Shown piece after piece: positions 7,650 through 62,863 of a stretch of DNA of 64,000 nt. The notes under the pieces are model-generated. The model saw nothing but the letters and a program-made list of their open reading frames with translations, did not search any database and was not told where the DNA came from. The translations under genes were made by a program, and so were the position numbers. The DNA is from Octopus vulgaris (Eukaryota): positions 87,978,001 to 88,042,000 of the forward strand of contig OX597818.1 of the NCBI GenBank assembly GCA_951406725.2. The letters are read 5' to 3'. The first letter of the stretch is position 1; each line of letters begins with the position of its first letter.

Positions 7650-7820
7650 CATATATATGACGGGCTTCTTTCGGTTTCCGTCTACCAAATTCACTCACAA
7701 GGCTTTGGTCGGCCCGAGGCTATAGTAGAAGACACTTGCCCAAGGAGCCACGCAATGGGACTGAACCCGGAACCATGTAGTTGGTAAGCAAGCTACTTAT
7801 TACACAGCCACTCCTACGCC
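7358..7820 (-). mobile_element. tRNA-derived SINE family A
   Basis: Minus-strand head GGCGTAGGAGTGGCTGTGTAATAAGTAGCTTGCTTACC...GGTTCAGTCCC; 3' tail AAAAGAGTAAAGAGTA. Confidence 0.85.
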
Positions 7821-13935: not shown

Positions 13936-14245
13936 CACTGAGGGAGAGAGTGTGAGAGAGGAAGAAGAGAGTGAGATGGGAAGGAGATAAATGGGTAAAT
14001 TGATTAATTGATTGATTGATTCAGTAGCACTGTCTGGTTACCCTTTTATCGCTGTAATAAACACACAAAGAGCACGCCTAATAATGGATTCTAAAACTGA
14101 AAATACTCACGAAACAATTCTACACTAGCAACCTACATATCCAACCAAATAGTTCAGTCTACACACACACACACACAAACACACATAGATAGATAGATAC
14201 ACACACACACATATATATATTCATATCTCTCTCTCTCTCTCTCTC

Positions 14246-15881
14246 TATTTTCAACTATTTTCAAACAAGATGATGGTCGTGAACCCCCTCCATTTGATAG
14301 ATCGGTACCTCCAATGCTTCGATTGATCATCACGCGGGACCAAGTCAAACGTGTTATTCAAGGCCTCGATGTCAACAAGGGTCACGGCCCTGACGGCATA
14401 CACCCACGGGTTATCAAAGCGTTGGCTCCGGTCATCTGCGAGCCCTTAACACGACTATTCAATATGTCATTGGCGACGGGTGTTATACCTGCAGACTGGA
14501 GAACAGCGATAATCTGCCCAATTTTCAAGAAAGGGAGCCGCGAAGACCCGCTTAACTACCGACCGGTTTCCCTTACATCAATAATCAGCAAGATGTTCGA
14601 AACCATCCTTAAGAAAAGTATGATGCTCCACCTCCTAAGCACAGCCTCGATCACTGATTCCCAACACGGCTTCGTGCCGAAGAGATCATGCTTGACCAAC
14701 TTACTAGTAATGGAAGAATTGGTGACGCGCATCCTCGATGATAGTGATGCTGTTGACATCGTTTTATTGGACTTTGCCAAAGCTTTTGACTCGGTAAACC
14801 ACCGCCTACTACTTGTCAAGCTTCAAGCATATAGTTTCCATCCGGATATTGTACGATGGGTTGGTGCCTTCCTCTCAGATCGCTCCTTCCAAGTTCAAGT
14901 TAATGGTTCGCGGTCCGACGTCTCCAGTGCGAGCAGTGGCGTGCCTCAAGGTTCAGTGCTTGGGCTCTTGTTGTTCTTAGTCTTCATAAATGACTTGCCC
15001 GACGACCTCACGCAACACACCCTTCTATTTGCCGACGATATCAAACTGGTCGCTCCTCGCGGTAGTATAGAGGATCTTCGTCGATGCCTCCACCAAATTT
15101 GGAAGTGGTCTAACGATTGGGACCTGTGTCTGAACGTGTCAAAGTGCTGTCATCTGCCTGTCGGCTCTACTCCTGCAACTCAACTTGATTTCGAGCCGGG
15201 TCGTCTGCTGCTGGAGAGGACCGATCAGGTAAGGGACCTGGGTATCTTGGTGGATTCCTCCTTTTCGCCTTCGGCCCAGTGCGTCCATGCTGCCAACAAA
15301 GCGCGCGGAATTCTGTTTTTGATTCGACGGTCATTCGGAGTGCTCACAGCAGCCATATTCCTGCCACTCTATGTCACGCTGGTGAGACCCATATTGGAGT
15401 ATGGGATTCAAGCCTCTTCTCCTTATCTCCTCAAAGACATACAGCACCTCGAAAGAGTCCAGAGTCTGGCTACCCGCCTGGTTCATGGTCTCAAAAATTT
15501 GTCCTACGAGGACGCTCGACCTTTATTCTCTTGAAAAACGCCGCCGCCGTGGTGATCTCATTCTCGCCCACAACATCATAAGCGGGAAGTGTAACCTCTC
15601 GAAAGAGCTGTTCTTCACTCCTGCTCCGGAGCGTCGGCTGCGGGGTCATTCCGAAAAGCTCTACCTGCGACGATTTCATCTCAATCGAAGGAGAGGAGCT
15701 TTCTCCGTCCGGGTTGCGGATCCGTGGAACAAGCTGCCAGATGAGATGGTGAAGATGCCAACGACCGCTTTGTTCAAAGCCTCCCTGGACCTCAAGTGGA
15801 CTGAACTCTTTACATGAACACCACCCTGTACTTAACTCTATGTCCCCCTACATGGCCTTGCTATTTGCTTTTGAGCCAAAT

Positions 15882-28928: not shown

Positions 28929-29516
28929 CCGACCGAAAATCCTAAATGAGACAGCTGCAGTTGTTTTGAGAGGGTATCTAAACATGGAAGCAGATGTACA
29001 AATATCCACCTACACTCTCCTTCTATCTTCATATTTCCTTGAGCGCCATAATTAAATTACATTTCAGAAGATATTCACGCAACTTCTTTGTGTTCTTCCT
29101 GTGGCTGACTTACTATAAATGACATTTGTATATTATTTTATTTTTATCTCTCATATTCCCATGCTGCTGATCCTATTGGTGGTGGCGCTGCTAACGCTGT
29201 TGCTGTTGTCGTTATGGACGGACATTAGCTCTGAGCAGATTTTATGCCGAAGTGATCCACTACATGACAATAGTATGTTTATATCTACATAGTTTACCTT
29301 GGACTACATTATTTCAATGTGTCCATCCTTCAACGAAAATTATTATTATCTTGCTAGCACCAACGTATTATCAAAAACTGTGCCCTCGGATTCACTTCAC
29401 TCCCCACCATCACTACGCCACATTTCTGATATTTAACGAACTAAATATTTCTCCATGTCGTCGAGCGGGCAGAATCGTTAGGCGCAGGAGTGGCTGTCTG
29501 GTAAAAAGCATGCTTA

Positions 29517-30287
29517 CCTCGTTTAGCATGCGTGAGTTTGTCAGTCACTTACGAGAGTGATCTCTGTCAAGATGTGCTTGGAAGCCGTCTTGAATTAAAG
29601 AGCCGTTGAAGGCGCGACTGCAAGGTAGGCATCTGTCGTTTGAGGGATTCGGTGGGGAATTCAAATTTTTTTGATATTGTTTTTTTCTCGAATAAGAAAT
29701 CCTCACTGGGTCATAGACATTTGTCTGCTGCAGTCGCGCTGAGTGACTCACTTAGCTGCGAGAATTGTTGTTTTAGTGGGCGTATCTCGTTACCAAAATT
29801 TGGAAAATTTATGAATTCGTGGAGGAATTTTTGTGTTGCGACGGCGAACTGGAGTACCTATATTCTTGTGGATAACCTGAGTGACGGAATTGTCTTGCCG
29901 TGAATTGAATTGCCTTCCTTCGTTCTTTTTCTCTGCTCTATCTTTTTGTTCTTTTTTGTGTTTTTATTTGGAACATTTTGGATTTTGTGTTGAACATTTT
30001 TCTTTATTTTTCTTTTGCAAGCATGGTAAAAAAAAAAAAAACACTGTATTAGAGTGGCAAATTGTGGCCCTCAAGCAATGGGGAAAAAACTTTAATGAGA
30101 GAACGGTGGTGTTGAGGACATATTTTAAGTCCCTCGACACCATCACTGTGTTCTCTCAGGCGGACATTGAAAAGGAGCTGGAAGAATATCTGCCAACTAT
30201 TAAGTTTATTGCAAGGGGTGTCGAATATGCAACGGTGCGATTGCTGCTTGACACCCATGGGGAGGCTCGAGATTTTGTGAACCAACG
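29517..30287 (+). mobile_element. 5' part of an L1/Tx1-like ORF1 element (relative of 46972-49575), 3'-truncated by SINE B sequence
   Basis: 5' UTR motif GAAGCCGTCTTGAATT shared; ORF1 remnant LEWQIV..KQW..ERTVVLRTYFKSLDTITVF..IEKELEEYLPTIKFIARGVEYATV.LLLDT nearly matches ORF 47644-48498. Confidence 0.85.
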
Positions 30288-31095
30288 CTTAGCGGTATTT
30301 CGTCTGCCGTTACGTTCTGAGTTCAAATTCCGCCGAGGTCGACTTTGCCGTTCATCCTTTCGGGGTCGATTAAATAAGTACCAGTTACGCACTGAGGTCG
30401 ATATAATCGACTTAATGCGTTTGTCTGTCCTTGTTTGTCCTCTCTGTGTGGATAGTAAAGAAATAGGTATTTCGTCTGTCTTTACGTTCTGAGTTCAAAT
30501 TCCGCCGAGGCCGACTTTGCTTTTCATCCTTTCGGGGTCGATTAAATAAGTACCAGTTACGCACTGGGATCGATGTAATTGACCTAATCTCTTTGTCTGT
30601 CCTTGTTTCCCCCTCTATCTTTTGCCATCTGTGAACAATAAATAAATAAATATTATACCAACATAAGGCGGCGAGCTGGCAGAAATGTTAGCACACCGGG
30701 GGAAATGCTTAATGGCATTTCGTCTATTTTTACGTTCAAATTCTTCCGAGGTAGACTTTGCCTTTCATTCTTTCGGAGTCGATAAAACAAATACCAGTTT
30801 AGCACTGGGGTCGATGCAATCGACAAGCCCCTTTCTCCAAAATTTCAGTCTTTGTGTCAATAGTAGAACGAGTATTATGCCAGCATGTAAGGCGGCAAAC
30901 CAAAAGAATCGTTAGCAAGCCACGCAAAACGCTCAGCAAGATTTCGTCTGTCTTTACGTTCAAATTCCGCCTAGATCGACTTTGCCTTTCTTCCTTTCGG
31001 GGTCGATAAAATAAGTACCAGTTTAGTACTGGGATCGATGCAATCGACTTATCCTCTCCACCGAAATTAGTGGTCTTGTGCCAAAATTTGAAGCG
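30286..31095 (+). mobile_element. Tandem cluster of SINE family B units
   Basis: Four repeats of ttacgttc(tgagttc)aaattccgccgaggtcgactttgcc..cctttcggggtcgat..aagtaccagtt, each with variations. Confidence 0.85.
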
Positions 31096-31110
31096 TATAT
31101 TATATCAGCG

Positions 31111-31410
31111 TGGGTGCGCAATGGCCCAGTGGTTAGGGCAGTGGACCTCACGGTAAGAGGATCGCGGTTTCGATTCCCAGACCGGGTTTTGTATGTGCTT
31201 ATTGAGCGAAAACACCTCAAGCTCCACGAGGCTCCGGCAGAGGATGGTGGCGATCCCTGTTGTACTCTTTCGCCACAACTTTCTCACGCTCTCTCTTCCT
31301 GTTTCTTGAGTAACGCTGCGATGGCTGGCGTCTCGTCCAGCTGGGGAGAACACATACGTCACAGAAACCGGGAAACCGGTGCCAAGAGCCTGGCTAGGCT
31401 TCAAAAGGGC
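31111..31410 (+). mobile_element. tRNA-derived SINE family C
   Basis: TGGCCCAGTGGTTAGGGCAG...GGTTTCGATTCCCAGACCGGG. Confidence 0.85.
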
Positions 31411-37114: not shown

Positions 37115-37702
37115 ATAATCCTTTCTACAAAAGGAGGATGGGACCAGTCGATTACATCGATTCCAGTGTTTCACTGGTACTTAATTTATCGACTCCGAAA
37201 CGAAGAAAGGTAATGTCCCCCACGGCGGAATTCGAACCCAGAACGTAAAGATAGACAACATACCGCTCGGCGTGTTAACGTTTCTTATTTCTTTACAGCC
37301 CACAAGGGTCTACATACATAGGGGACAAACAGGGACAGACAAACTGATTAAGGCGATTACATTGACCCCAGTGCGTAACTGGTACTTAATTTATCGACCC
37401 CGAAAGGATGAAAGGCAAAGTCGACCTCGGCGGAATTTGAACTCAGAACGTAAGGAGAGACGAAATACTTATTTCTTTACTACCCACAAGGGGCTAAACA
37501 CAGAAAGGACAATCAAGGACAGACAAACGGATTAAGTCGATTATATCGACCCCAGTGTGTAACTGGTACTTATTTAATCGACCCCAAAAGGACGAAAGTC
37601 AAAGTCGACCTTGGCGGAATTTGCACTTAGAATGTAGCGGCAGACGAAATACGGCTACGCATTCCGCCCGGTGTGCTAACGTTTCTGCCAGCTCGCCACC
37701 TT
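37115..37702 (-). mobile_element. Tandem cluster of SINE family B units
   Basis: Head AAGGTGGCGAGCTGGCAGAAACGTTAGCAC on the minus strand at ~37700; three core repeats. Confidence 0.85.
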
Positions 37703-38323
37703 ATCAGTTAGTTTAATAACAACCAGACATTATACTGGTTCAGCAACAACTGCTACCCTCTGGGTTTACAGTCATGGTGTTTATGCATGATACTAACTCT
37801 GCTTCCTTTTTTTATTATTATATATATTTTTTATTTATATTTAATTTTTGCATGATTTTTTTTTTGCCCGGAAACTATGAAAACTATCAGACATGCTTGA
37901 GTTGAAACTGCTAACCTAATGTTGCTGAAGCTTGTCTCAATGTCGCCGTTCGGACATGCTTCAACATGTCTCCCCACCAATCTGGCGTCAAACTTTAAAA
38001 CCCTATTAAAACGCAAGCATCACGAGAGGTTAGGGTACAGTTTAGCATGGAGTTAATCCCAAGAAGTGATGGTCATCAGTATGTATCGCTATGTAGGTTA
38101 ACTAGCATGTCATGGAATTATCTCCGGAAGAATGTCTGTCACAGGCACCTCCAACCATCCAAGGAATATATAGAGACCCTTCAGCTCATTCGCTGTTTAA
38201 CTTAGATAGCGGTTCTCAATTGGAGTCCGTATGGCCCTTTGAGGGTTCATATAAGAATTTGTAGCTAATATTTATGTGCAATAAACTGTTTATGATACAC
38301 AAAGTATTTAAACAATTCTTTTG

Positions 38324-40299: not shown

Positions 40300-40678
40300 T
40301 GCTTTTCTTCGTCTCAGTCACTGGACTAAGGCCATGCTTGAACACCGCTTTGAAGGATCTTAGTATAACAGGTCGACACTCAGTACTTATTTTTAGTCTG
40401 ACACTTATTCTATCGGTCACGTTTTGCCCAAACGCTAGGTTACGAGAGCCTTAAGATACCAAGCAGTGATGGGGCTTACATACACACACACACACACACA
40501 CACACATATACGACAAGCTTCCATACAGTTTCCAGTTACCAAATTCGCTCACAAGTTATTGGTCGACCACGGATCTATGGTAGAAGACACATACCCAATG
40601 TACTGGGCAGTGGGACTGAACTCTAAACCACGTGGTTGCAAAGCGATCATCTTAACCATGCAATTATATCTGTGCCTA
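40300..40678 (-). mobile_element. Diverged SINE family A
   Basis: Same block order as 7358-7820, with many substitutions. Confidence 0.65.
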
Positions 40679-41416
40679 AGGCGGCGAGCTGGCAGAAGCG
40701 TTAGCACGCCGGGCGAAATGCTAAGGGGTAGTTCGTCTGCCGCTACGTTCTGAGTTCAAATTCCGCCGAAGCCGACTTTGAATTTCATCCTTTCGGGGTC
40801 GATTAAATAAGTACCAGTTACGCACTGGGGTTAATTTAATCGACTTAATCCGTTTGTCTATCGTTGTTTGTCCCTTGTGGGTAGTAAAGAAATAGGTATT
40901 TTGTCTGCCGCTACGTTCTGAGTTCAAATTCCGCCGAGGTCGACTTTGCCTTTCGTCCTTTCGGGGTCGGTAAATTAAGTACCAGTTGCGTACTGGTGCC
41001 GATCTAATCGACTGGCCCCCTCGCCAAAAGTTTCGGGCCTTGTACTTAGAGTAGAAAAGAATATTATAAAAGTGGCGAGCTGGCAGAAACGTTAGCACGC
41101 CGGGCGAATTGTGTAGCCGTATTTCGTCTGCCGTTACGTTCTGAGTTCAAATTCCGCCGAGGTCGACTTTGCCTCTCATCCTTTCGGGGTCGATAAATTA
41201 AGTACCAGTTACGCACTGGGGTCGATGTAATCGACTTAATACCTATATCTGTCCTTGTTTGTCCCCTCTATGTTTAGCCCCTTGTGGGTAGTAAAGAAAT
41301 AGGTATTTCGTCTGTCATTACGTTCTGAGTTCAAATTCCACCGAGGTCGCCTTTGCCTTTCATCCTTTCGACTGGCCCCCTCCCCAGAAATTTCGGGCCT
41401 TGTACCAAGAGTAGAA
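40678..41416 (+). mobile_element. Two head-to-tail SINE family B elements with duplicated cores
   Basis: Heads GGCGAGCTGGCAGAA at ~40683 and ~41074. Confidence 0.85.
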
Positions 41417-46144: not shown

Positions 46145-46460
46145 TACGAGCAAAGTTGCGTGGTTTGTGGTTAGTGTATTCGGCTTACGCTCATATAGTG
46201 GTGGGTTCGATTCTCAGCGGTACGCTGTACCCCCGAGCAGGATACTTTATTTCCACTCAGCCGGCAAAAATAAGTTTTACCTCTGATTCAAAGGGCCAGT
46301 CTTGTCACAGTTTGTATCACGTTGAATATCCCTGAGAACTACGATATAGGTACGAGTGTCTGTGGAATACTCAGCCACTTGTACGTTGATTTCACTAGCA
46401 GGCTGTTCTTTTGACCTGATCAATTGGAACACTCTTCGTTGTAACCGATGGAATGTCGGT
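46145..46460 (+). mobile_element. Diverged tRNA-derived SINE
   Basis: TGGTTTGTGGTTAG A-box-like, GGTTCGATTCTC B-box-like, then gagcaggatactttatttc domain. Confidence 0.55.
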
Positions 46461-46586: not shown

Positions 46587-46971
46587 CTCTTTTACTCTTT
46601 TCGGTCATTTGACTGCGGCCATGCTGGAGCACCACCTTTAGTCGAGAAAATCGACCCCAGGACATATTCTTTGTAAGCCTAGTACTTATTCTATCGGGCT
46701 CTTTTACCGAACTGCTAAGTTACGGGGACGTAAACGCACCAGCATCGGTTGTCAAGCGATGTTGGGGGGGCAAACACAGACACACAAAGAAACACACACA
46801 CACACATATATATATACATATACAAATATACGGCGGGTTTCTTTCAGTTTCCGTCTAGCAAATCCACTAACAAGGCTTTGGTCGGCCCGAGGCTATAGTA
46901 GGAGACACTTGCCCAAAGTGCCACGCAGTGGGACTGAACCCGGAACCATGTGGTTGGTAAGCAAACTACTT
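46587..46971 (-). mobile_element. SINE family A body; its first ~37 nt are displaced to 49576-49612 by an insertion
   Basis: Family A sequence stops at ggtaagcaaactactt and resumes at ttagcaagctacttaccacacagtcactcctgcgcct. Confidence 0.88.
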
Positions 46972-49575
46972 TATTTCAAAACATTTGCCATAAAGGCAGT
47001 ACACAGATTAAGTTAGCTTTGCGGGCTGGACGAGGACATTAATGAGGTGAATGATAATGAAAGAAAGATGATAAGGATGGGAGAAGACAAAAAGCGCCCG
47101 CCGACTTTGGCTTCTCTAAAACATTGTTCTTTTTAAAGATAAACACAAAACGAGGTATTAAACCTCTTACAATTTTTCCAATTTTTGGACTTAGCAGTCC
47201 ATTATTAATACAAAACGAGGTATTAATCCCCTTACAATTTTTCAATTTTTGGACTTAAGTCCATTACTAATAATACATATCGTCCTCGAAATAGCTTGTG
47301 CCCGCGCCCTCCACCATCAACCACGCCTCCCTCAGAACGTAGTCAAGTTCCGAGTTCGCGTCGCCCGGGACCAAGTTATAATCTTCATTGAGCTCCTTTA
47401 GCCCAAGCGTCATGTCGAACGCCACGGCCTCCACAGCTACCTGCGGAGGCCATTCGGGGTCCTGGGTGAAGGCTAAAGGTGCTCCCTTGTAGTGCTCTTC
47501 CATCACTTTTTCAATTTCTCCTCCTCTATAGAAGAGGACCAATACGTTCAGTTCTTTCGTTAGCGGCACAGTTTCCGCCAACGGTATTCCTTCTCTTGTC
47601 GGTGGCGCAACCCCAACCGACGTAGTTCCGGGACATTCCGGTGCTACACTGACAGCCGGTAATGTCCCGTTTTTTTTCCTCTTTTTCTTTTTTTTCCCTT
47701 TTCAACTGAGGGAGGGTGCGTCTCCTCCGTGGCTGGAAGATTCGCCTTCCTCTCCTCATCCCTATTATCCTTTGGTGAGCACCCATTGTTGCTCACCTTC
47801 CTCTTTCGGCCTCTGTTTGAGGAGTCCTCTGCTTTCTCGGCCGTTATCGTTCCCTCTTCTAGAGGGGTTTTACTTAACTGTTCCGGGATCCTATTTTGTT
47901 CCCGAGGACAGTTCTTCTTTATGTGGCCGGACTCCAAGCACCGATGACACCTAGCGGGGCGACCCTCAAGCATCACCGGGTACCTGCACCCGGCCATTTT
48001 CAAAAAATCTGGAAGAACCAGGGTCCACAGGGTCAAAATTGCTTTTGACCCAACCCAAGCAGCCGCAGGAAGAACTTTTACATTGAGGAGCTTAGTTTCG
48101 CTGTCACCCAGACCCCGGCGGATAGTCTCCTCTATCCACTCGGGTTCTATGTCGGGTGGCAGTCCGCAGATCCAAGCTTTCATCAATTTCTTTTTTTTGT
48201 ACGTGGGCAGGAATAAGATTTCCTTACCCTCCAAGGGTTTGCTAGCAAATTTGCAAGCCTCTTCAGGGGTGTCAAATAGCAACCACACCGTTGCATATTT
48301 GACACCCCTGGAAATGAATTTAATTGTTGGCAAATACTCTTCCAACTCCTTTTCAATTGCCGTCTTTTCGAATAGGGCGATGGTGTCAAGTGCCTTGGAG
48401 TAGGCTCTCAACACCACCGTCCTATCTTCACGGTCTTTTAACCACTTTTTGGGTGGTATGATTTCCCACTCCAAAATTTTGTTATTTTTCATTGCCATGT
48501 TTTTTTTAAAATATATTCAAATTAAACTCAAAAGCAGGAAGAAAAAAGTTCAAAAGTCCAAATAAAATTTGATAGATTTTTGAAAAAACAAAAAGGAGAA
48601 AGCACAACAGAAGGGAAGAAATTAACGGAAAGTCGCAATAAAGAAAAAAACAAAAGGGGGGGGGGTTAAATGAAGTTCAAAAGAAAGTTAATAAACAGAA
48701 AAAACACAGCAAAAATATTCTGGCCTTGCGGTACTCCCGGCCTGGGTTGAACCTGGAACGCCGCAACTGCAACACAACCTCCACAAAAATGGGTCCGAAA
48801 GGTAATCCAATAGTGGCTTATTTTTATACTTTTCTTGCGAAGTACTCTGACAAGGGAATAAATTCAACAAACCCAAACACACCACTGGCTACCGCCAACG
48901 GTAATTTTAACAGTAACTGTATTGAATTCTGAGGATACGCCCCTCCACTGTTTTTTCCGTTTTTTTTTCAATGAACACAAAAACGGCAGCCGCCTAGAGC
49001 AGGCGAAATTGTCTCAGAGTTGGACACAACTTACTGAAATAATAATTGGCTCGCAATAAATTATGCCCAACTCACAATAAACAAAATCACTTACCTCGAC
49101 AACTTTCCGTTTTTGGTCTTTTTTCTTTACTCCCGGCCTAAATTGAACCAGGAACGCACAACTTCCACAAAAATTGGTGTAAAATTGGTAAAAATTGTTC
49201 AAACTTCGGAGGCAAAATATTCCCCTATATAGTAGTTTTCACAATTCATAAAAGTTCTTCACAGCACAATACAATTCTCACAATTACATGAGAAAAATAT
49301 TTACTCAATTTATCGGAGACGGATACGCCCCCAAAAATTTTTCTCAGCGAGAAAAATATATTTGCCACATGTCGGCAGAATCAGAATTCTGAATCCAGTA
49401 GGACTTCCTGCCTGTAAAAAACAATTCTCAACAAAAACTCCCACTGGACCCAGAAAACAGAATCTTACCTTACATGGGGCTTCCAAAGTTTTCAATTCAA
49501 GACGGCTTCAATAGCACGTCTTCACCGCTTCAGTGCCAAACACAACACTGACTCGCACATGCGCAGAAGCAACCG
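46972..49575 (-). mobile_element. ORF1-only (HAL1-like) non-autonomous L1/Tx1-type retroelement, apparently complete
   Basis: 14-bp TSD with 12/14 identity (TAAGCAAACTACTT / TTAGCAAGCTACTT); ~1.07-kb 5' UTR; ORF1; 3' UTR with ~65-bp tandem duplication; ends AATAAA; no RT or APE motifs seen. Confidence 0.8.
47644..48498 (-). CDS. LINE ORF1/gag-like nucleic-acid-binding protein with CCHC zinc knuckle; probably continues by frameshift into 47267-47581
   Basis: 284-aa ORF starting at ATG, with CHRCLESGHIKKNC (CX2CX4HX4C), an RRM-like stretch WICGLPPDI upstream and a basic C-terminus. Confidence 0.75.
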   Translation of the reverse strand: MAMKNNKILEWEIIPPKKWLKDREDRTVVLRAYSKALDTIALFEKTAIEKELEEYLPTIKFISRGVKYATVWLLFDTPEEACKFASKPLEGKEILFLPTYKKKKLMKAWICGLPPDIEPEWIEETIRRGLGDSETKLLNVKVLPAAAWVGSKAILTLWTLVLPDFLKMAGCRYPVMLEGRPARCHRCLESGHIKKNCPREQNRIPEQLSKTPLEEGTITAEKAEDSSNRGRKRKVSNNGCSPKDNRDEERKANLPATEETHPPSVEKGKKRKRGKKTGHYRLSV

Positions 49576-49831
49576 TTAGCAAGCTACTTACCACACAGTC
49601 ACTCCTGCGCCTACGTATGTGTATATATATATATGTGTATGTGTGTGTTTATGTATATATGTATACATATTTGTGTGTGTGTATGTGTGTGTGTGTGTGT
49701 GTGTGTATGTGTGTATGTGTGTGTGTGTGTGCGTGCATTGTCAACCGTAACGCCTTATCGCCCGTTGCATATGAATTGTAACATTTGGAAATATCAAACA
49801 GGTTTCGGGAATTTCCTCGAAGACTCCCTAC

Positions 49832-61272: not shown

Positions 61273-62863
61273 GCGGCCAAAATGTTCAGAACGACATTGT
61301 TTTCGCCCAAAAAAGTAGGTATAATTTTTTATCAAAGTTGTTTTATGTTCGATAATTTTCACAGACAATAAATACAATATTAATTGTTATTGTCTGAGAT
61401 TTTGGTGTAATTTGAGAGGATAATACAAAAGTTATGGATGATATAGTGATTTACTGCAAAACCCATGGCGGCCAAAATGATCAGAACGGTTGAAAATATA
61501 ACAAAATAATAAAAAATGACTGAGAATACTGAAATTATTTAATATTTAGTATGAAGCCCTTTAGCTTCAATCACACTTTGACATCTTCGACTGCATGAGG
61601 AAATTAAATTTTCAATTTCTTGCTAGGTGATCTTATTCCCTTCTTCCTGAAGGGCATTCCGTAATTGCTCGCTTGTTTTAGGATTTCTGGCTTTCAAACG
61701 TTCTCCTAGAATATTCCACACATTTTCAATAGGATTGAGATCTGGGCTTTGAGCAGGCCAATCCATAATAATAACCTTTTCAGTCTTGAGGAAGTTCATG
61801 ACCACCTTAGCCTTGTGACATGGGGCATTGTCCTGCATGAATATGGGTGGTCGCTTAGTTGAATTTCTCAGCACAGACAAGACATTTACCTTTCCGTGTA
61901 ATCGCACCAAAGAGCCCACACCGTCTCCAGATATCATCCCCCAAACCATAACACTTCCTCCACCGAATTTAACAATAGTCTTAAGGCATTTAGGCGACAA
62001 TTTTCACCTACTTTTCGACGAACGTACCTTTTCCCATCTGAGCCAAATAACATCAACTTAGATTCATCACTGAAATGCACCGTTTGCCATTTGTCTTGAG
62101 ACCACAACACATGTTCGGTTGCAAAGGTAAGACGACACTTTTTATTTTTGGAGCTGATCAGTGGCTTCACTGCAGGTGATCTTGCTTGTAGGTTATGTTC
62201 AACTAAACGATGAGACACAGTTTTTCGAGATAACGCTTTCTTCAGTACAATGCTCATTTCCCGAGAAACAGCAGCAGCAGTTTTAAATCTGTCCTTTTTA
62301 ACCAACTCTACTATAGCACGATCTTCTCTCTTGGTCGTTTTTCTTGGCCTACCTGTAGACTTTCTTGCTTCATACGAACCACAATCATCGAAGACCTTAA
62401 GAATACCGTGAACAACACTTTTTGACTTGTTAACAATCTTTGCAATAGACCCAATACTTAAATTATCCTTCTTTCGAAGCTTAATAATCTGCTGACGAAT
62501 TGGTAACGGAGTAAGTGACATTATATTAACAAAGTACAATGCAGATATTCTTAGTAATGTTTAGTAAATGAACCATCATGTAAACAAATTCAAAACATTA
62601 GAGTTCGCCGGTTAAATATATTAAAACACAGAGTAAAAGCAACCGTTCTGATCATTTTGGCCGCCATGGGTTTTGCAGTAAATCACTAAATCATCCATAA
62701 CTTTTGTATTATCCTCAGAAATTAAACCAAAATCTCAGACAATAACAATTAATATTGTATTTATTGTCTGTGAAAATTATAGAATATAAAACAACTTTGA
62801 TAAAAACTTATACCTACTTTTCTGGCGAAAACAATGCCGTTCTGAACATTTTGGCCGCAACTG
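61268..62863 (-). mobile_element. Near full-length Tc1 (DD34E) transposon with ~225-bp IR/DR-type TIRs
   Basis: TIRs 61268-61492 and 62641-62863 with outer and inner direct repeats GCGGCCAAAATG(T/A)TCAGAACG; inserted in (TA)n. Confidence 0.95.
61539..62521 (-). pseudogene. Tc1 transposase (frameshift near 62000, premature stop at 61623, small deletion)
   Basis: GRPRKTT, WQTVHFSDESK, VKFGGGSVMVWG, FMQDNAPCHKA, WPAQSPDLNPIENVW (34 aa between D and E), ..AKGLHTKY stop. Confidence 0.93.

Follow-up and report, generated by a model that had tools for sequence, protein, structure and literature searches.

Several families of the Tx1 clade of long interspersed nuclear elements (LINEs) insert at a fixed position in a multicopy repeat, and their reported targets comprise piggyBac, Mariner, Harbinger and long terminal repeat (LTR) elements, the U2, U5 and 5S genes, and microsatellites (PMC4494074). 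Examples are Xenopus Tx1L (in Tx1D), crocodilian Tx1-Mar (Mariner-N4) and Tx1-9_AMi (Harbinger), Keno (U2) and Kibi/Koshi (microsatellites), and the crocodilian SINEU are non-autonomous passengers that share the target of a Tx1 partner (PMC4494074). In HAL1 (half-L1) elements the first open reading frame (ORF1) is the sole coding region (PMC5753468). Insertion inside units transcribed by RNA polymerase III (Pol III) is also known from NeSL-1_TV and LIN15/LIN25_SM (PMC4640811) and from Dada (PMC8869645), which target transfer RNA (tRNA) genes, some Dada families inserting in the anticodon arm (PMC8869645). Here we describe a 64,000-nt stretch of the Octopus vulgaris genome (assembly GCA_951406725.2, contig OX597818.1, positions 87,978,001 to 88,042,000; hereafter the window, whose own numbering is used throughout) in which a tRNA-type short interspersed nuclear element (SINE) is split by a 2.6-kb element flanked by a 15-bp duplication, the element carries ORF1 and no ORF2, and a second, diverged element starts at the same SINE position. 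L1-Tx1 elements are abundant in O. vulgaris, with 80 families, 13 of them recently active, and SINEs make up ca. 12% of an octopus genome (PMC13282606). The excerpts available to us contained no SINE-targeting LINE and no description of this element (among them PMC8967140, PMC4824008, PMC3747384, PMC10351740 and PMC9115989); Repbase and Dfam lay outside the search, and a database entry may exist.

The host SINE lies on the reverse strand. Its head, nt 1-37, occupies 49575..49611 (-), as judged by alignment with intact copies at 7820 (-), 58829 (-), 35791 (+) and 53088 (-), and differs from the majority of these four heads at 2/37 positions. The body takes over from nt 38 at 46590..46956 (-), with an internal microsatellite and a second half (46790-46590) 90% like the copy at 7567-7369, and it is in register after the downstream junction, where it departs from three intact copies at 13/134, 13/134 and 20/134 positions. 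A systematic scan found that the best duplication between the two junctions is 15 bp long with 13/15 matches, its 5' copy being SINE nt 23-37 (49575..49589) and its 3' copy lying at 46957..46971, both (-); each copy shows one departure from the majority of the four intact heads. The insert parts an A-box-like motif (SINE nt 11-21, 49601-49591), on its upstream side, from a B-box-like one (nt 54-64, 46940-46930) in the downstream body, both having been scored against a general box consensus with up to two mismatches allowed. A relaxed ARAGORN search gave a tRNA-like fold in 2/3 intact copies. No tRNA was reported for the SINE heads by default ARAGORN or Rfam, as expected from the decay of the head, and the Rfam matches near one intact copy were discarded as microsatellite noise. 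With internal A and B boxes and a tRNA-like head, the host has the features of a tRNA-derived SINE, a family with nine recognisable heads in the window, seven of which have the body attached.

The element itself (46972..49574 (-), 2,603 bp, between the two duplication copies) starts with a long 5' untranslated region (UTR) of 1,076 nt (48499..49574), the first 280 nt of which are homologous to the second element described below, and which includes a diverged internal duplication (49191-48964 and 48805-48577 (-), 146/207 identical, ca. 390 nt apart). The ORF1 region follows (47267..48498 (-)), from an ATG at 48498 to a stop at 47267 through two overlapping frames, and then a 3' UTR of 295 nt (46972..47266 (-)) with a 65-nt tandem duplication at 47263-47137. 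The hexamer AATAAA (46970..46975 (-)) abuts the target, its last two A's being the first two bases of the duplication, so that the latter could be 13 bp long if these two bases came from the element.

The diverged relative is on the opposite strand. There, a second head of the same SINE, again nt 1-37, is found at 29481..29517 (+) (4/37 differences from the majority of intact heads and 6/37 from the main head) and is followed at 29518..30291 (+) by an element with a full-length 5' end, a 5' UTR of about half the length of that in the main copy and the first 85-90 codons of ORF1. The junction falls at SINE nt 37 or 38, in the same orientation as in the main copy. The homology between the two is clear both in the 5' UTR (158/221 identical; the alignment scored 106, and none of 1,000 shuffles exceeded 45) and in the first third of ORF1 (72.8% over 257 nt). 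The 3' part of the relative has been lost: close to 30291 the copy gives way to the body of a SINE from a second family. The head of this second SINE sits immediately to the left of 29481, and the sequence at the break is briefly similar to both ORF1 and that SINE. The SINE head preceding the relative starts exactly at nt 1, after TTA, as other copies of the family do. The simplest history would be one of nested insertions followed by a deletion that took the 3' part of the element together with the body of its host SINE. Further fragments of the element family were not found in the window.

These data bear directly on a first-pass annotation of the window, made from its letters only. The split at 37 nt from the SINE 5' end by a 2.6-kb insert, the position between the A and B boxes (now nt 11-21 and 54-64), the AATAAA terminus (46975-46970) and the relative beginning after the same SINE position in the same relative orientation (behind the head at 29481-29517) were all described there and are borne out, with the main head now placed exactly at 49611-49575. 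The 14-bp duplication (12/14) it proposed is real, and turns out to be a sub-window of the 15-bp one.

Two elements with one junction might have inherited it or acquired it twice. Over 80 codons of ORF1, the two copies differ at 53% of synonymous sites (pS 0.53, bootstrap 0.39-0.67; dS 0.91) and at 20% of non-synonymous sites (dN 0.23), a disparity indicating that the two ORF1s diverged as working genes. Their SINE heads, with 6/37 differences, fall within the range of 2-8/37 seen among the four intact copies. In addition, in a 39-residue comparison the nearer partner of the main copy is the Octopus sinensis protein P0003 (34/39) and that of the relative is O. sinensis P0002, a pairing supported by 5/5 informative sites. 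That the ORF1s are deeply diverged while the heads are not favours two independent insertions at one SINE position. Given nine heads in 64 kb, the chance of two insertions at one fixed base is ca. 1.4e-4, and both family members in the window (2/2) have their first base next to SINE nt 37-38, with a common orientation. We consider a real preference for this SINE site quite probable. For comparison, a Tx1 family has been taken as target-specific when one repeat type makes up >20% of its flanks (PMC4494074). A search for the SINE-plus-element junction pattern in viral and prokaryote genome contigs gave no matches, as expected for octopus DNA.

The coding capacity of the insert consists of a first frame of 284 codons from the ATG at 48498 and a second, overlapping one that is open for 143 codons to 47267. 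We read them as probably one ORF1 with a frame switch. The C-terminal segment of the second frame looks plausible by eye next to the C-termini of relatives, although the similarity lacks statistical significance, its score having been reached by 109 and 45 of 500 shuffles. An Atlas match of this segment to amine oxidases was set aside, with only 101/256 features in common. The O. sinensis homologue P0002 (281 aa) ends in the same lysine-rich stretch in which the frame changes in the window ORF1 (codons ca. 270-284), and the change could be due either to an error-prone A-run or to a conserved frame switch. ORF1 also contains an inverted repeat, the 15-bp arms of which (48264-48278 and 48296-48310) match perfectly and are 17 nt apart.

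The first 205 residues were modelled by AlphaFold with a mean predicted local distance difference test (pLDDT) of 89.4, as two RNA recognition motif (RRM) domains (residues ca. 14-103 and 104-179; 47962..48459 (-)) and a zinc knuckle. The best Foldseek matches of this model were tandem-RRM proteins (E 4e-5), and the two halves were aligned by VIA-align to single RRMs, i.e., those of La (Z 9.1, root-mean-square deviation (rmsd) 2.7, 83 residues aligned) and U2AF65 RRM1 (Z 8.6, rmsd 2.2, 70 aligned). LINE ORF1 structures did not appear in the fold-search lists, which excludes nothing. The single CCHC knuckle (residues 184-198; 47905..47949 (-)) scores short of the Pfam cut-off (PF00098, E 0.014-0.03), a cut-off that P0004 and P0009, among other relatives, do pass. 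In the Atlas, the closest clusters consist of CCHC-domain and ZCCHC3-RBD proteins (0.91-0.93). The best protein match is P0002 (62% identity, 96% query coverage), for which there is a gene annotation and three RefSeq accessions. A full-library phmmer search returned 53 relatives at E <=0.001, eight of them at 1e-10, and 11 of the 20 that were looked up carry a name: nine belong to Octopus species, one to an Argonauta species, and one has a name that gives no species. In a metagenome scan, 13 loci from 352 candidate stretches were rejected as relatives, the zinc-knuckle region alone having matched. On the model, the protein is a type I LINE ORF1, of the class defined in PMC4120745 and PMC5203782, with a predicted RRM-RRM-CCHC arrangement. 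Pfam gave no Transposase_22 match in it, i.e., no sign of the ORF1 type of HAL1 and L1.

As to ORF2, the insert has 18 stop-to-stop frames of at least 60 aa. We found no remnant of a reverse transcriptase (RT) or endonuclease in the insert, neither by listing these frames, nor by tblastn, for which an RT fragment found elsewhere in the window was the query (best E 3.5), nor by Pfam, which had no match in the two post-knuckle frames scanned. The tblastn query was a 445-codon open frame at 14197-15534 (+) that resembles a fragment of a LINE reverse transcriptase. From the ORF1 stop to the intact 3' end there are just 295 nt, so that ORF1 is present and ORF2 absent as in HAL1, for this copy alone. 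Shortly after the ORF1 stop, the 3' UTR duplication encodes in one frame the peptide KIGKIVRGL (47200-47160 (-)); it resembles the first strand of apurinic endonuclease (APE)-type enzymes, and an endonuclease relic at this place was rejected for lack of Pfam support. Four members of a distant ORF1 cluster (P0005 and P0055-P0057) come from contigs of 1,849-1,930 nt, too short for ORF2, which hints weakly at ORF1-only forms being common in the lineage. That the loss of ORF2 is common to a family seems to us somewhat likely.

We think that the element probably belongs to the Tx1 clade. Its RRM plus CCHC ORF1 is compatible with, though not diagnostic of, this clade, and the 15-bp duplication (13/15) is of the kind left by target-primed reverse transcription. 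In animals other than mammals, ORF1s of RRM-RRM-CCHC type have been regarded as in keeping with Tx1 (PMC5203782). Like the target-specific Tx1 LINEs, the octopus element combines an apparently fixed position in a multicopy repeat, a type I ORF1 and a target duplication; unlike them, it lies in the head of a tRNA-type SINE, outside the target classes given for them in the excerpt (PMC4494074), and it lacks ORF2 and hence the RT by which the clade is defined. It resembles HAL1 in being non-autonomous with ORF1 only (PMC5753468). It is not a HAL1 member, however, having the wrong type of ORF1: HAL1 stems from mammalian L1 and has a Transposase_22 ORF1, whereas here we find RRM-RRM-CCHC, no poly(A) tail and apparent site specificity. 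With SINEU it would share the condition of a non-autonomous passenger with a Tx1 partner's target, but SINEU are short, non-coding and inserted in DNA transposons (PMC4494074). NeSL-1_TV, LIN15/LIN25_SM (PMC4640811) and Dada (PMC8869645) likewise insert inside a tRNA-like Pol III unit, and differ in targeting real tRNA genes with a restriction-like endonuclease (RLE) or a DNA transposase. Of the first-pass view of the element, then, the Tx1 resemblance survives in the form of a Tx1-compatible type I ORF1 and the L1/HAL1 side does not, for want of Transposase_22; the CCHC knuckle stays, with its sub-cut-off score, and is joined by two predicted RRMs that had been missed; the statement that RT and endonuclease are missing agrees with tblastn (best E 3.5) and Pfam; and from the inference of a SINE-targeting, non-autonomous element the fixed SINE position is upheld by diverged ORF1s behind undiverged heads, with the Tx1 clade no more than likely.

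The explanation that we favour, and regard as just about probable, is that of a non-autonomous, Tx1-like, ORF1-only element inserted at SINE nt 37 by the sequence-specific endonuclease of an unseen partner, with silencing of the SINE. The most likely mechanism is target-primed reverse transcription by the partner's ORF2 in trans; the junction geometry is observed, and we infer the enzyme and the loss of Pol III transcription. A 2.6-kb RNA would be transcribed from the element's own long 5' UTR and bound by its own ORF1 protein. The partner's ORF2 would then nick the SINE on its antisense strand, between nt 22 and 23 (or 24/25 if the two shared A's are element-derived), and the freed DNA end (TT) would pair with the terminal AA of the RNA and prime reverse transcription. 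A second nick on the sense strand after nt 37, plus fill-in, would give the duplication. With 2.6 kb between its boxes the SINE would be unable to recruit Pol III, while for the element such an abundant and dispensable repeat would serve as a safe landing site. In its widest form, which we hold only tentatively, the proposal is that an octopod Tx1 lineage targets the SINE head, has kept this target long enough to form subfamilies (dS ca. 0.9) and ORF1-only passengers, and destroys a Pol III promoter at each insertion.

Several points weigh against this explanation. The element has no poly(A) tail at its 3' end. The count on which specificity is based covers two copies in one 64-kb window, and since the relative has no 3' junction, a single duplication has been seen in all. 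A lone insertion inside a SINE would mean little where SINEs are ca. 12% of the genome. Long ORF1-ORF2 fusions were absent from 790 and 3,744 candidates, which are weak tests, and no ORF2 partner was found. The clade is left unfixed by the type I ORF1, as such ORF1s occur in Tx1 and also in I, Jockey, R1, Tad1, L2 and some CR1 elements (PMC4120745). Some Tx1 families have 5' heads derived from small RNAs (U1, U2) (PMC4494074), and a head of this type could account for the relative without targeting. Finally, two mismatches in the 30 sites of the duplication are somewhat many (P 0.08) at the distance of ca. 1.6% from its family that we estimate below for this copy; one duplication copy may, speculatively, have come from the co-transcribed flank of a donor SINE.

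The alternatives differ in which part of this explanation they give up. Targeting would be retained if the element came from an autonomous SINE-targeting LINE family and had lost ORF2 in this copy alone, by an internal deletion during or after insertion. This we consider unlikely. There is one complete copy to judge from, the KIGKIVRGL peptide just after the ORF1 stop recalls the first strand of APE endonucleases, and some distant ORF1 relatives are on contigs of 5.4-6.2 kb, with room for ORF2; but the peptide has no Pfam support, and the deletion must have taken nearly all of ORF2, sparing the ORF1 stop and the 3' end and leaving no detectable remnant. Targeting itself would be dispensed with if the main copy's arrival in a SINE had been fortuitous, at a weak nick site of the TT/A type, which resembles the generic L1 preference, and the relative had gained its head by a template switch or by 5' read-through of a donor copy. 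The abundance of SINEs, the missing 3' junction of the relative and the existence of Tx1 families with acquired U1 or U2 heads (PMC4494074) are all in keeping with such a course of events. Yet it needs two unrelated events ending at the same base (37-38), and the relative's head begins at SINE nt 1 after TTA, inside a second SINE whose body resumes past the break, which is the remnant to be expected of a nested insertion after a later deletion; we regard this explanation as improbable.

Still further down we would place the possibility that one old insertion into a SINE was multiplied as a composite unit and the shared junction simply inherited. Junction and orientation are indeed identical in both copies, and for SINEU-3 in Mariner-N4 the same kind of hitchhiking was an alternative that needed to be eliminated (PMC4494074). 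Inheritance, however, predicts a divergence of the heads close to that of the synonymous sites (pS 0.53) or of the 5' UTRs (158/221 identical), against the 6/37 observed, which is what unrelated SINE copies show, and the two ORF1s belong to different subfamilies, all of which makes it very improbable. We give equally little credit to an origin outside Tx1, be it from one of the other clades in which type I ORF1s occur (R1, I, L2 or a CR1 subgroup) or from a domesticated ORF1-like host gene that was retrocopied by a target-specific LINE. The annotation of P0002 as a gene with three RefSeq accessions would fit such an origin, and RRM-RRM-CCHC ORF1s have been found in several clades (PMC4120745); on the other hand, where two-RRM ORF1s are listed for Jockey, L2 and CR1 the number of knuckles is three (PMC4120745, Table 1), against one in the octopus ORF1, and many diverged octopod homologues exist. 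The octopus element moreover joins a 15-bp duplication to an AATAAA end, which is a better fit to the L1/Tx1 group.

Some indication of copy number and age came from sequencing runs. Among the 24 listed, 20 contain part of the insert (run shares <0.2, 4/24 rows, were left out), and 13, from six studies, contain at least half of its words, the top share being 0.61; no RNA holder was among the listed runs, the run types being guessed. Shares of 0.53-0.59 were reached in runs of 305-562 million letters, whereas a locus present in a single copy and seen once should give 9-15% in a genome that we assume to be 2.7 Gb. This points to a family that is young and multi-copy if the runs are DNA, or transcribed if they are RNA, the word shares giving no view of the junction. 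The plateau near 0.6 would correspond to a difference of ca. 1.6% between this copy and its family. The absence of premature stops in 302 codons fits that value (P 0.57 at 1.6%, 0.10 at 6.7%).

If the favoured explanation, a partner-driven ORF1-only element at a fixed SINE position, were true genome-wide, SINE heads would join the targets of sequence-specific LINEs, and Tx1-type targeting would be combined with an ORF1-only passenger, features previously known apart. It would be a case of one retrotransposon living on, and pruning, another. A parasite that cuts promoters could then shape SINE activity, in a genome of which SINEs are ca. 12%, and the partner would possess an endonuclease with a new specificity of 15-20 bp. 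In repeat annotation, such a copy would appear as an unknown gene flanked by SINE fragments with no evident connection, and the gene models of O. sinensis suggest as much.

The window contains other mobile sequences. The second SINE family, with tandem 170-bp repeats, forms clusters at 30283-31057, 37146-37718 and 40677-41370, and its head is adjoined twice by the host SINE family (at 29481 and near 40680), after TTA each time. By eye, tRNA-like SINE heads of other families are recognisable at 31110-31410 (+) and 46150-46460 (+), and a 208-codon frame at 61934-62560 (+) resembles a fragment of a Tc1/mariner transposase.

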